Below, piece by piece: positions 22,384 through 23,358 of a DNA stretch of 64,000 nucleotides. A program made the translations under genes and the position numbers. The notes beneath the pieces were generated by a model. That model ran no database searches. It saw only the letters and a list, made by a program, of their open reading frames with translations, and was not told where the DNA came from. The stretch lies in assembly GCF_965641715.1 (NCBI RefSeq), contig NZ_OZ282453.1; one strand, given 5' to 3'. The stretch is from Escherichia coli. GTDB lineage: Bacteria; Pseudomonadota; Gammaproteobacteria; Enterobacterales; Enterobacteriaceae. Every line of letters begins with the position of its first letter. Positions within the stretch are counted from its first letter, which is position 1.

Positions 22384-22812
22384 ATGGGTTTTCGTAGCGC
22401 ATCAATTCTTACGTTGATTATTAGTGGGATTATTATCGGGTGCACTGATGCTGTATCGACAAATTATCATGACCGTACATCATATTACTCCGATAAAGCA
22501 ATAGAGACACAGTATGTGAGTTCATCTGAACGTACTTCTGATGTTAGTGAGGATATCCGTCTGTATGCCCATCAAATCAAGAGCGCCATCGAAAAACAGT
22601 TCGGGGATGCGAGTAAGTATTCAGGAAAAGAGTGTACACTGAGAATGCATATGGCCCCGAATGGCCTTCTACTGGAGGTTAAAAGAGAAAGTGGAGACCT
22701 CGATTTATGTCGTGAAGCGATGAATGCGATAAAGAATGCTGATATACCTGCCCCCCCTTCGCCGGAAGTATATAAAGTATTTCAAAATGGGGTGCTGGAT
22801 TTTAAACCCTGA
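22384..22812 (+). CDS. Outer-membrane lipoprotein with TolA domain-III-like C-terminal domain (copy 1)
   Basis: Signal peptide + lipobox IIGC (Thr at +2); C-terminus YAHQIKSAIEKQFGDASKYSGKECTLRMHMAPNGLLLEVKRESGDLDLCREAMNAIKNADIPAPPSPEVYKVFQNGVLDFKP vs remembered TolA C-terminus YAGQIKSAIESKFYDASSYAGKTCTLRIKLAPDGMLLDIKPEGGDPALCQAALAAAKLAKIPKPPSQAVYEVFKNAPLDFKP. Confidence 0.8.
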   Translation: MGFRSASILTLIISGIIIGCTDAVSTNYHDRTSYYSDKAIETQYVSSSERTSDVSEDIRLYAHQIKSAIEKQFGDASKYSGKECTLRMHMAPNGLLLEVKRESGDLDLCREAMNAIKNADIPAPPSPEVYKVFQNGVLDFKP

Positions 22813-22962
22813 TATTTATTGTTTTGTAATAAACGGTTTCGGCTTAGGTTTGTTCTGACACAACTACGGCACTGAGCTAAATTTAGCGGATAGTCAGCTC
22901 TGAGCCAGTGGCGGACGTAACAACTACTATTGCTGAGATTTTAATGGATTGAGGAGCAAGAA

Positions 22963-23358
22963 GTGGGATTAAAGAAAATCGTTATGTTGACTTTTTGGGT
23001 CGGTTTTGTTGCGGGATGCACACCTTTACACCCTTCAGATTGCCACAAAACTACTGCTACAGGTAGTTGCAGTTCAGGACGCTGGGATGATCAGGATGAA
23101 TGGGGGGCGCAAGCGCGGGGAATCAGAGCTGCAATTAATGCCAAACTTGATGAGCCGCATAACTGGAAAGGGAAAAAATGCAGGTTGCATATGGAATTCT
23201 CTCAGGATGGCACGGCGTTAAAAATATCTACCAGTAACGGTGATAAAGCCTATTGCGAAGCGATAAAGTCCGCAGCTCATAAAGCCAAATTTCCGGCCTT
23301 CAACAATCCGGAAGTCTACAGAGATTTTCAGAAATCTGGCTTTGACATGCGAGGTTAG
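22963..23358 (+). CDS. Outer-membrane lipoprotein with TolA domain-III-like C-terminal domain (copy 2, divergent)
   Basis: Signal peptide + lipobox VAGC (Thr at +2); GIRAAINAKLDEPHNWKGKKCRLHMEFSQDGTALKISTSNGDKAYCEAIKSAAHKAKFPAFNNPEVYRDFQKSGFDMRG shares the conserved Cys pair and PxVY.xF pattern. Confidence 0.7.
   Translation: MGLKKIVMLTFWVGFVAGCTPLHPSDCHKTTATGSCSSGRWDDQDEWGAQARGIRAAINAKLDEPHNWKGKKCRLHMEFSQDGTALKISTSNGDKAYCEAIKSAAHKAKFPAFNNPEVYRDFQKSGFDMRG

Follow-up and report, generated by a model that had tools for sequence, protein, structure and literature searches.

Introduction

Several mobile elements encode small outer-membrane (OM) lipoproteins that act at the interface of OM and periplasm to block the entry of phages or DNA, among them Llp of T5, Cor of phi80, N15 and HK022, and TraT of the F plasmid, and these genes are often carried as morons. 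Tolerance to colicins and phages can also arise at the import machinery, either through dominant-negative periplasmic fragments of TolA domain III (TolA-III) or of the TonB C-terminal domain (TonB-CTD), or through the blockade of TolA by g3p in Ff-infected cells; bacteriocins are imported by two routes, Tol and Ton. Levengood-Freyermuth, Click and Webster reportedly described in the Journal of Bacteriology in 1993 that TolA-III placed in the periplasm gives E. coli tolerance to group A colicins and Ff phage. As for position, conversion morons are known from the Q-to-S slot, as with stx in Stx phages, and in lambda bor is found just past the lysis genes.

Here we analyze two genes (ORF1 and ORF2) of a prophage in a 64,000-nucleotide stretch of Escherichia coli DNA (contig NZ_OZ282453.1; hereafter, the window). 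Like Llp, Cor and TraT, their products are small, predicted OM lipoproteins encoded on a mobile element. However, they have no sequence or fold relationship with those proteins, their function is only predicted and, whereas Llp, Cor and TraT target OM receptors (FhuA, OmpA), ORF1 and ORF2 copy a periplasmic import hub. With the engineered fragments and the g3p blockade they would share the logic of saturating a docking site, and they differ from laboratory fragments and TolA-binding g3p in being natural genes, with products predicted to be OM-anchored, that are widespread on prophages, plasmids and chromosomes. The resemblance to stx is one of position and layout, since the cassette occupies the slot between Q/tRNA and holin, has promoter-like and terminator signals of its own and is lower in GC than the genes upstream; its cargo is of another kind, and nothing points to a role in virulence.

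Location and layout of the cassette

Both ORFs were found on the + strand exactly where a sequence-only reading of the window had placed them, and the proposal that they occupy the slot downstream of Q and the tRNAs is borne out by the gene order, namely Q, a hairpin, the two tRNA genes, the cassette and the holin (Table 1). Pfam Antiterm matches antitermination proteins of the same length (273 aa) at related loci. An AT-rich promoter region belonging to the cassette had also been suggested. In agreement with this, the GC content of the cassette was 38-46%, versus ~49-55% for the Q/ninR genes upstream, and the promoter candidate, identified as a consensus match only, agreed with the consensus at 10 of 12 positions, the top score in a 3-kb scan. 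Transcription from this site would produce a 5'UTR of ~23 nt, with GAGG at 22376-22379, and the site is kept, with one change in the -10 element (TGTAAT), 5' of the ORF1 relatives with 91% identity that other prophages carry. An STnc100-like element is located at 22083-22273. At the opposite end, the cassette is closed by a strong predicted terminator (a 7-bp stem with five GC pairs, plus the T-run). Two genes set between a predicted promoter and a terminator, and between Q/tRNAs and holin, suggest that ORF1 and ORF2 make up a moron.

Table 1. Position of the two lipoprotein genes, their predicted domains and the neighboring features in the window
Feature	Position	Strand	Remarks
Q-type antitermination protein	20169..20990	+	PGAP 'antitermination protein'; marks the start of the late operon
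Terminator-like hairpin	21071-21090		5' of the tRNA pair
tRNA(CAT)	21134-21209	+	Met by ARAGORN, Ile by PGAP
tRNA-Arg(TCT)	21310-21386	+	Phage tRNA gene
Sigma-70-like promoter candidate	22325..22354	+	TTGAGC, 18-nt spacer, TATAAT; 30 nt 5' of ORF1
ORF1	22384..22812	+	Predicted OM lipoprotein, 142 aa; lipobox and TolA-III domain
ORF1 signal peptide/lipobox			Residues 1-20; Cys20 codon 22441-22443
ORF1 tether	22444-22542		Residues 21-53; disordered, Ser/Thr/Tyr-rich
ORF1 TolA-III domain	22543-22809		Residues 54-142
ORF2	22963..23358	+	Predicted OM lipoprotein, 131 aa; lipobox and TolA-III domain
ORF2 signal peptide/lipobox			Residues 1-19; Cys19 codon 23017-23019
ORF2 N-terminal segment			Residues 20-45; conserved, Cys-containing (C27, C36), GRWDDQDEW
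ORF2 TolA-III domain	23098-23355		Residues 46-131
Intrinsic terminator closing the cassette	23484..23510	+	AGCTCGC-TACG-GCGAGCT, then TTTTTATATT
Lysis cassette	23610..25165	+	Directly 3' of the ORF1/ORF2 cassette
Holin essD	23610-23825	+	
DUF1327 gene		+	Between holin essD and lysozyme
Lysozyme	24138-24671	+	
Rz	24668-25165	+	Rz1-like ORF embedded

Homology to TolA domain III

The C-terminal parts of both proteins had been likened to TolA-III, and pairwise alignment, Pfam, phmmer against the PDB and structure prediction all agreed on it, at a level far above chance. Residues 55-142 of ORF1 matched residues 334-421 of TolA (phmmer, E = 5e-28) and residues 51-129 of ORF2 matched the same domain (E = 5e-9), with identities to host TolA 334-421 of 59% and 31%, respectively. 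The Pfam TolA family (PF06519) was covered over positions 4-96 of 96 by ORF1 (E = 3.2e-23) and 10-92 by ORF2 (E = 1.5e-14). AF2 models of the two monomers had pLDDT >95 over these domains, and E. coli TolA-III was the top Foldseek match for both (RMSD 0.6 Å and TM 0.96 for ORF1; 1.1 Å and 0.92 for ORF2). Accordingly, they share with TolA-III (residues ~330-421; PDB 1S62, 3QDP, 1TOL, 2X9A) the alpha1-beta1-beta2-alpha2-alpha3-beta3 fold, the disulfide pair and the position of the C-terminal docking strand. The Cys pair (C363/C388 of TolA), said to be conserved in the earlier reading, was in fact invariant in all 57 aligned homologs, and a disulfide is predicted from it. ORF1 ends as described (...PEVYKVFQNGVLDFKP), its LDFKP being identical to that of TolA, and ORF2 ends ...PEVYRDFQKSGFDMRG, with FDMRG at the place of LDFKP.

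Both proteins carry genuine TolA-III domains but are not TolA orthologs. At 142 and 131 aa versus the 421 aa of host TolA, and with lipoprotein signal peptides as N-termini, they do not have the full TolA architecture: they lack the transmembrane domain I, and hence coupling to TolQR, as well as the long helical domain II, and their signal peptide and short tether predict that the domain is placed on the outer instead of the inner membrane. Both scored below the cutoff of 213 bits of NF007065 (107.8 for ORF1 and 53.7 for ORF2), and matches to the NCBIfam TolA profile were confined to positions ~265-387. For TIGR02794 (cutoff 59.45), ORF1 was above (75.6) and ORF2 below (47.2), which would account for the name 'TolA' that PGAP gives to ORF1.

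Predicted export signals

Lipoprotein signals with OM sorting had been predicted for both genes, and a positively charged n-region, a hydrophobic h-region, a lipobox ([LVI][ASTVI][GAS]C within the first ~35 residues) and a +2 residue other than Asp, which would mean retention in the inner membrane, are all present. The ORF1 signal peptide (MGFRSASILTLIISGIIIGC, followed by T) has R4 in the n-region, the lipobox IIGC20 and Thr at +2, and it passed a PROSITE-type lipobox rule; that of ORF2 (MGLKKIVMLTFWVGFVAGC, followed by T) has K4 and K5, the lipobox VAGC19 and also Thr at +2. The latter assumes that ORF2 starts at the GTG at 22963, which has a GAGGAG Shine-Dalgarno 6 nt 5'. PGAP places the start at Met8 (ATG 22984), and the positively charged n-region is then lost. 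The GTG is the more plausible start, and it falls on the Met that opens the conserved MG(V/L)KK sequence at the N-terminus of the plasmid copy. The lipobox was kept in 118 of 120 full-length representatives of the ORF2 family and 26 of 30 of the ORF1 family, residue +2 being A, S, T, C, G, V or L and never Asp, and the strict lipobox rule was passed by 49 of the 70 short (100-175 aa) TolA-III representatives. Such conservation throughout the families indicates that the predicted OM tether is a selected feature and not an accident. The SSGRWDDQDEW stretch of ORF2 was considered as a colicin-like TolB box; it does not match the defined box (DG[ST]GW) and is a weak lead.

Ancestry and selection

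The two genes had been regarded as a duplication with divergence, an idea that does not stand. ORF1 is much closer to TolA than to ORF2 (28% identity between them), and each gene is found alone elsewhere, ORF1-type genes at this position in further lambdoid prophages and ORF2-type genes on plasmids and on Enterobacter/Citrobacter chromosomes. Together, the identities (59%, 31% and 28%) and the independent occurrence rule out a recent tandem duplication and indicate two independent lineages that were joined, rather than copies of one another. A recent capture from E. coli tolA is ruled out as well, by a nucleotide identity of 59% and saturated dS.

Both genes are under purifying selection: dN/dS was 0.09-0.24 in the ORF1 domain (0.5-0.8 in the tether) and 0.08-0.13 for ORF2 (0.08-0.11 against plasmid and chromosomal relatives). 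These data bear on the possibility that we are dealing with inert tolA fragments that hitch-hike without a function of their own, as might be thought from the PGAP label of ORF1 and from the fact that both proteins span only the last quarter of TolA. However, complete E. coli records that carry the cassette at ≥99% identity and in which ORF1 is intact numbered at least 783, and the cassette is present in ~14% of complete E. coli genomes. Moreover, dN/dS was 0.08-0.26, lipoprotein signal peptides were acquired and then conserved, the genes have their own RBS, promoter-like site and terminator, and synonymous sites are saturated with respect to host tolA. Selection and signal peptides, therefore, effectively refute the possibility of inert fragments.

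Docking strand and possible function

TolB, g3p-N1 and colicin N bind the C-terminal strand of TolA by backbone beta-addition, and D418P or K420P abolish binding (PMC4339652). In this beta3 strand (L417-D418-F419-K420) ORF1 is identical to TolA, and ORF2 keeps D418 and has K420R, L to F and F to M. In addition, all three Lys of the colicin A site are replaced in ORF2 (K368E, K379S and K396H). Among 47 diverse short homologs, beta3 was among the best-conserved elements and beta2 (colicin A site) the least conserved. Since binding at beta3 is mediated by the backbone, sequence alone does not decide which ligands dock on ORF1 or ORF2.

We believe that the best explanation, to which we would assign a probability of roughly 45%, is that of an OM-tethered decoy intercepting Tol-dependent bacteriocins and/or the g3p of filamentous phages. 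Two independent moron genes would each provide an exported TolA-III module which, after lipidation at Cys20 (ORF1) or Cys19 (ORF2) and Lol sorting to the inner leaflet of the OM, would hang from this membrane on a tether of ~25-33 residues. The N-terminal segments of group A bacteriocins and/or g3p N1, which normally dock on the TolA tip by beta-strand addition, would in a lysogen meet the tethered copy first. Binding to it would lead nowhere, because the copy is uncoupled from the TolQR motor, and the lysogen would be tolerant. The modeled TolA-III fold and disulfide pair of both proteins, the docking strand retained exactly in ORF1 and in part in ORF2, and the conservation of the lipobox under purifying selection are consistent with this explanation, as is carriage by elements that gain from protecting their host (prophages, pO157, and IncI-gamma/K/B/O and IncR plasmids). 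Reported affinities are ~1 uM for ColN-TolA and ~40 uM for TolB-TolA (PMC4339652), so a modestly expressed decoy could titrate invaders and mostly spare TolB. On the other hand, the TolA-III copy would also bind the TolB N-terminus, possibly at a cost, and ORF2 is very strongly conserved, with no sign of an arms race. The loss of the colicin A site Lys and the altered beta3 suggest that ORF2 may have a ligand other than the classical TolA binders.

As TolB is the natural ligand of the retained docking strand (PMC4339652; PMC7391070), a tethered TolA-III could instead bind the TolB N-terminus (or CpoB) in competition with TolA and modulate the Tol-Pal system of the host, thereby tuning Pal mobilization, OM stability or vesiculation; indeed, modulation of TolB interactions has been proposed as a way to regulate OMV production (PMC7391070). 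A direct TolA-III-Pal contact, which the sequence-only reading had invoked, is disputed (PMC7391070). The proteins would then be envelope-physiology factors in lysogens and in Enterobacter/Citrobacter, or would loosen the OM late in infection, which is conceivable because the cassette also lies within the Q-dependent late transcript, directly 5' of holin, endolysin and spanin. However, the weak TolA-TolB affinity would require substantial expression, a complete spanin is already encoded by the phage, and the promoter/terminator layout points to expression in the lysogen and not to a dedicated role in lysis. We consider this modulation rather unlikely; were it to hold, the proteins would be natural probes for TolB-TolA force transduction.

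Exclusion of the Llp/Cor type seems more doubtful still. Here the TolA-III/TonB-CTD-like fold would dock by strand addition, perhaps onto a TonB-box-like strand, on the side of an OM receptor or porin that faces the periplasm, locking the receptor against adsorption or DNA entry of dsDNA phages or against colicin threading, and TolA would not be the target mimicked. Like Cor and Llp, these are small predicted OM lipoproteins, here encoded by a candidate moron of a lambdoid prophage. ORF2 has an additional, highly conserved N-terminal Cys-loop segment, and its counterparts of the known TolA ligand sites have diverged. TonB-CTD, a TonB-box binder of related fold, appears among the lower-ranked Foldseek matches of both models (PMC7391070 for the relationship). 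Nevertheless, neither Cor nor Llp is related to them in sequence, no candidate receptor was found, and ORF1 is so similar to TolA (59%, LDFKP) that its simplest targets would be the ligands of TolA.

Relatives on plasmids and chromosomes

RefSeq names both genes by domain and PHROG 5772 is labeled 'unknown function'. PADLOC defence models gave no match for ORF1 or ORF2, and a full-text literature search found neither a functional study nor any publication on TolA-III proteins that are lipoproteins or are encoded by phages or plasmids. One paper merely lists 'TolA' and 'TolB family' (TonB family in RefSeq) genes on a Klebsiella plasmid.

The ORF2 family occurs on pO157 and, after nikB, on plasmids of the IncI complex (IncI-gamma/K/B/O), and IncR plasmids also carry TolA-III lipoprotein genes. 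More distant TolA-III lipoproteins are encoded on Klebsiella plasmids, with related genes on hundreds of them. In small Klebsiella ColRNAI plasmids, the TolA-III lipoprotein gene is in tandem, with a 4-nt overlap, with a TonB-CTD gene whose product has a signal peptide (Pfam TonB_C, E = 1.2e-10), and the pair adjoins a bacteriocin-immunity-lysis operon. By analogy, this pairing points in the same direction as the decoy explanation, and the modulation of Tol-Pal leaves it unexplained; the homologs on bacteriocin plasmids are, however, only 27-35% identical to ORF2. Chromosomal genes speak for Tol-Pal modulation: the ORF2-type gene of Enterobacter kobei stands alone in a conserved, non-mobile synteny and that of Citrobacter amalonaticus has a non-phage neighborhood, so that for these highly conserved genes outside mobile elements a housekeeping envelope role fits at least as well as defence.

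It is possible, and we put it forward tentatively, that a natural and widespread class of import-machinery decoys exists in enterobacteria, made of OM-tethered TolA-III, at times with a secreted TonB-CTD, and carried by lambdoid prophages, pO157, IncI-complex, IncR and ColRNAI bacteriocin plasmids and some chromosomes. Rather than neutralizing the toxin, its members would imitate the periplasmic docking site, and the resulting tolerance would be broad and independent of the toxin, extending to entire classes of bacteriocins and also to filamentous phages. Mimicry of a host import hub would then be a new principle of defence, distinct from toxin-specific immunity and from the loss of receptors, and it could account in part for colicin tolerance, which is common among natural isolates and poorly understood. 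It would bear on therapeutics based on bacteriocins and filamentous phages, on gut competition and on ways to perturb Tol-Pal. The decoy explanation is open to direct testing with existing reagents, namely phage mEp460, colicins, M13 and purified T-domains.

In the IncI1 plasmid R64, inspected in all but its last ~21 kb, there was no ORF2-type gene at the nikB position, where nikB abuts trbC, and the If1 sensitivity of R64 hosts is thus neutral on the idea that the IncI genes act against this I-pilus phage. Two distant short homologs (P0224 and P0188) are on contigs too short to inform on context. A 29-kb Klebsiella plasmid with three copies of the gene proved to be a trimer of a 10-kb plasmid.

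Predicted lipoproteins with a TolA domain III

The two tandem genes ORF1 and ORF2 had been taken, in a sequence-only reading, for outer-membrane (OM) lipoproteins ending in a TolA domain III (TolA-III), and formal analysis bore out the lipoprotein prediction at the sequence level and confirmed the domain. Their signal peptides have basic n-regions and lipoboxes with Thr at +2 (IIGC20-T in ORF1 and VAGC19-T in ORF2) conforming to the PROSITE-type rule; the PGAP start of ORF2 is a later ATG, with which the n-region is lost. In phmmer searches of the PDB, E. coli TolA-III chains were matched with E = 5e-28 (ORF1) and 5e-9 (ORF2), Pfam PF06519 was recognized with E = 3e-23 and 1.5e-14, and identity to residues 334-421 of host TolA was 59% and 31%, respectively. 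The equivalents of the TolA C363/C388 pair, also pointed out in that reading, were invariant in the aligned homologs. Structure prediction agreed: AlphaFold2 models computed from alignments of 53-57 sequences were set by Foldseek on solved E. coli TolA-III with RMSD 0.6 Å and TM 0.96 (ORF1) and 1.1 Å and 0.92 (ORF2), pLDDT being >95 over residues 54-142 and 46-131 and low in the N-terminal tethers. Neither protein is a TolA ortholog, since both lack transmembrane domain I and helical domain II and score below the NF007065 cutoff; the cutoff of TIGR02794 is looser and is passed by ORF1, a likely source of its PGAP name, 'TolA'.

Comparison of ORF2 with copies from plasmids, Citrobacter and Enterobacter gave a Nei-Gojobori dN/dS of 0.08-0.11; for ORF1 the ratio was 0.09-0.24 in the TolA-III domain and 0.5-0.8 in signal peptide plus tether. 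The lipobox was retained in 118 of 120 ORF2-family and 26 of 30 ORF1-family full-length representatives, never with Asp at +2. Judged from their sequences, ORF1 and ORF2 are functional proteins and are predicted to be exported.

Between the lipid Cys and the domain, members of the ORF2 family share a highly conserved segment, PLHPSxCHKTTAxGSCSSGRWDDQDEWG (residues 20-45 of ORF2, positions 23020-23097). It contains two additional Cys, and its acidic motif with two Trp, GRWDDQDEW, did not match the TolB box DG[ST]GW. Clusters farther removed show the spacing C-x(5-8)-C-x(7-9)-C again, and AlphaFold2 modelled the segment without confidence.

Gene order and expression signals

The genes lie in a lambdoid prophage; in E. 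coli 55989, annotation of the corresponding region runs from an integrase to a tail fibre. They follow Q and the two tRNAs, a position downstream of Q and tRNAs having been noted before, and precede the holin (see table). The arrangement of the tRNAs resembles that of the tRNA cluster preceding stx in Stx phages. The interval of about 1 kb between tRNAs and ORF1 holds a 117-aa ORF, a small DUF3927 gene and an Rfam STnc100 match, which could be a separate sRNA or a piece of the regulatory region of the cassette (ORF1 and ORF2 with their promoter-like site and terminator); positions 22195-22384 are conserved together with ORF1 in other prophages. Just past the lysis genes the DNA is very AT-rich (28-39% GC), and a cspA thermoregulator match there suggests a prophage cold-shock-protein gene with a long 5'UTR.

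Features of the prophage region and of related plasmid loci
Feature	Position	Strand	Remark
DicF (Rfam)	11414-11465	-	
sok, with hokD (Rfam)	17597-17771	+	
Q-type antiterminator	20169-20990		upstream of the cassette features below
Terminator-like hairpin	21071-21090		3' of Q
tRNA, CAT anticodon	21134-21209	+	Met (ARAGORN), Ile (PGAP)
tRNA-Arg(TCT)	21310-21386		next after CAT tRNA
117-aa ORF	21497-21850	+	without annotation in corresponding RefSeq record
STnc100 sRNA (Rfam)	22083-22273	+	114 bits (gathering 47); between tRNAs and ORF1 promoter
Promoter candidate	22325-22354		TTGAGC-18-TATAAT
ORF1	22384-22812	+	142 aa
ORF2	22963-23358	+	131 aa; GTG start, good Shine-Dalgarno
Hairpin	23484-23501		7 bp, GC-rich, then T-run
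Lysis cassette	holin from 23610		directly after ORF1/ORF2
cspA thermoregulator (Rfam)	25371-25787	+	
IS009 (Rfam)	49951-50149	+	
STnc560 (Rfam)	61545-61759	+	
ORF2-type gene, WP_001453090.1	L030 (pO157) 8965-9396; L029 (toxB-bearing IncF plasmid) 3965-4396		between ssb-psiBA-hok leading-region remnant and toxB
TolA-III lipoprotein and secreted TonB C-terminal domain pair	L013 1512-2245; L015 8482-9215 (Klebsiella ColRNAI plasmids)	-	
144-aa TolA-III lipoprotein directly after secreted thioredoxin-fold (DsbA-like) protein	L014 (Klebsiella IncR plasmid) 5217-6246	+	

The promoter candidate, 30 nt 5' of ORF1, was the top sigma-70-like match in a 3-kb scan and is kept, with one -10 change, 5' of 91%-identical ORF1 relatives elsewhere; a terminator-like hairpin follows ORF2, and GC content is 38-46% in the cassette against about 49-55% in the upstream Q/ninR genes. 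The promoter and terminator signals are matches to consensus, from which we infer that the cassette is transcribed in the lysogen. It also lies within the Q-dependent late transcript. A reading of the genes as inert tolA fragments was rejected in view of the purifying selection, the conserved signal peptides and the expression signals.

Origin and distribution

The same reading had proposed a duplication with divergence, which did not hold: ORF1 is 59% identical to TolA-III and 28% to ORF2, and each type occurs alone elsewhere. Single ORF1-type genes (91% and 66% identity) occupy the Q-to-holin slot of other lambdoid prophages, in some of which a DUF1133-family gene takes the Q position. ORF2-type genes stand alone on pO157 (E. 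coli O157:H7) and a similar toxB-bearing IncF plasmid, immediately 3' of nikA-nikB on IncI-gamma/K/B/O plasmids (R64, a classical IncI1 plasmid, had none after nikB), and on the chromosomes of Enterobacter kobei, in conserved non-phage synteny, and Citrobacter amalonaticus, in a non-phage neighbourhood. Recent capture of the ORF1 domain from E. coli tolA is excluded by 59% nucleotide identity and saturated dS. Therefore, the cassette brings two distinct lineages side by side.

The 1.3-kb cassette was found in 772 of 5,426 complete E. coli genomes (at least 80% coverage), nearly always with at least 99% identity, and in a single phage record (mEp460_ev081) out of 50,697. At 90% identity, the ORF1 family comprises 46 clusters, E. 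coli almost throughout, and the ORF2 family 370, from Escherichia, Shigella, Citrobacter, Enterobacter, Klebsiella, Raoultella and Serratia; ORF2 as query retrieved 130 clusters among 1.84 billion cluster representatives. By tblastn, 1,297 plasmids bear TolA-III-like genes, about 600 of ORF2 type (E. coli, Shigella) and about 690 of a more distant type, chiefly in Klebsiella. Of the 130 clusters retrieved with ORF2, 70 are 100-175 aa long; a lipobox by the strict rule was present in 49 of these, several others being near-canonical. By these counts, TolA-III on a short predicted OM lipoprotein is a widespread architecture.

The TolA-III domain is already known and the Q-to-holin moron slot is classical. 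RefSeq annotation of the two genes is domain-based, their entry in PHROG 5772 reads 'unknown function', PADLOC defence models include none for them, and no functional study of TolA-III lipoproteins was found in the literature searched. The placing of TolA-III on an OM lipoprotein anchor, and its spread over prophages, pO157, IncI-complex, IncR and bacteriocin plasmids and some chromosomes, appears undescribed.

Putative function

We tentatively propose, with a probability of about 0.45, that ORF1 and ORF2 are OM-tethered TolA-III decoys, a dead end for Tol-dependent bacteriocins and/or g3p, which would group them with the entry-blocking lipoproteins known from mobile elements. Once exported, lipidated and sorted by Lol, the domain would be suspended by a tether of about 25-33 residues from the inner leaflet of the OM, in the zone between OM and peptidoglycan. 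Here group A bacteriocins emerge from porins or TolC with their disordered translocation domains, and here g3p-N1 arrives. The real TolA-III has to come to this zone from the inner membrane, and the tethered copy should win the encounter; binding to it would lead nowhere because it has no TolQR coupling. Periplasmic TolA-III expressed from a plasmid is reported to confer tolerance to group A colicins and Ff phage on E. coli, and TonB fragments in the periplasm act in a dominant-negative way; ORF1 and ORF2 would be natural counterparts of such fragments.

Colicin A binds TolA at strand 375-380 and K368, K379 and K396 (PMC3365938). The TolB N-terminus, g3p-N1 and colicin N dock by backbone beta-strand addition to the C-terminal strand, with KD of about 1 uM for ColN and about 40 uM for TolB, and D418P or K420P abolishes binding (PMC4339652; PMC7391070). 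This published gap of about 40-fold suggests that a decoy could titrate invaders and leave Tol-Pal working. ORF1 keeps LDFKP, K379 and K396, with K368H; ORF2 has FDMRG at beta3 and none of the three lysines. Among 47 diverse short homologs, beta3 ranked with the better-conserved elements, with a mean column entropy of 2.03 and D418 in 74%, and beta2, the colicin-A strand, was the least conserved (2.56). This is modest evidence that the surface under selection is the docking edge of the TolB/g3p/ColN type. As a rival, an Llp/Cor-like block acting on an OM receptor from its periplasmic face, through a TonB-CTD-like strand-addition fold, is plausible for ORF2, which is divergent and has an additional N-terminal motif; overall we regard it as improbable.

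The decoy reading gains an analogy from Klebsiella ColRNAI plasmids of 10-12 kb that carry an operon of a colicin-like tRNase bacteriocin with immunity and lysis genes. Adjoining it in divergent orientation is the gene of a 123-aa TolA-III lipoprotein (LLTAC-K), overlapping by 4 nt that of a 121-aa TonB C-terminal domain protein with an ordinary signal peptide (Pfam TonB_C, E = 1.2e-10), a pair named without interpretation in a published survey. Bacteriocins are imported by two pathways, Tol and Ton. Exported, motor-less docking domains of both next to a bacteriocin operon would most simply be read as an import blockade; the argument applies to ORF1 and ORF2 by analogy only, because the homologs are no more than 27-35% identical to ORF2. 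A modulation of Tol-Pal by competition for TolB or CpoB is favoured by the highly conserved, syntenic chromosomal ORF2-type genes and the adjoining lysis genes, but this pairing, the weak affinity of TolB and a complete spanin already in place speak against it; we consider it unlikely, if less so than a receptor block. On the Klebsiella IncR plasmid, the DsbA-like neighbour may be relevant to disulfide formation in TolA-III.
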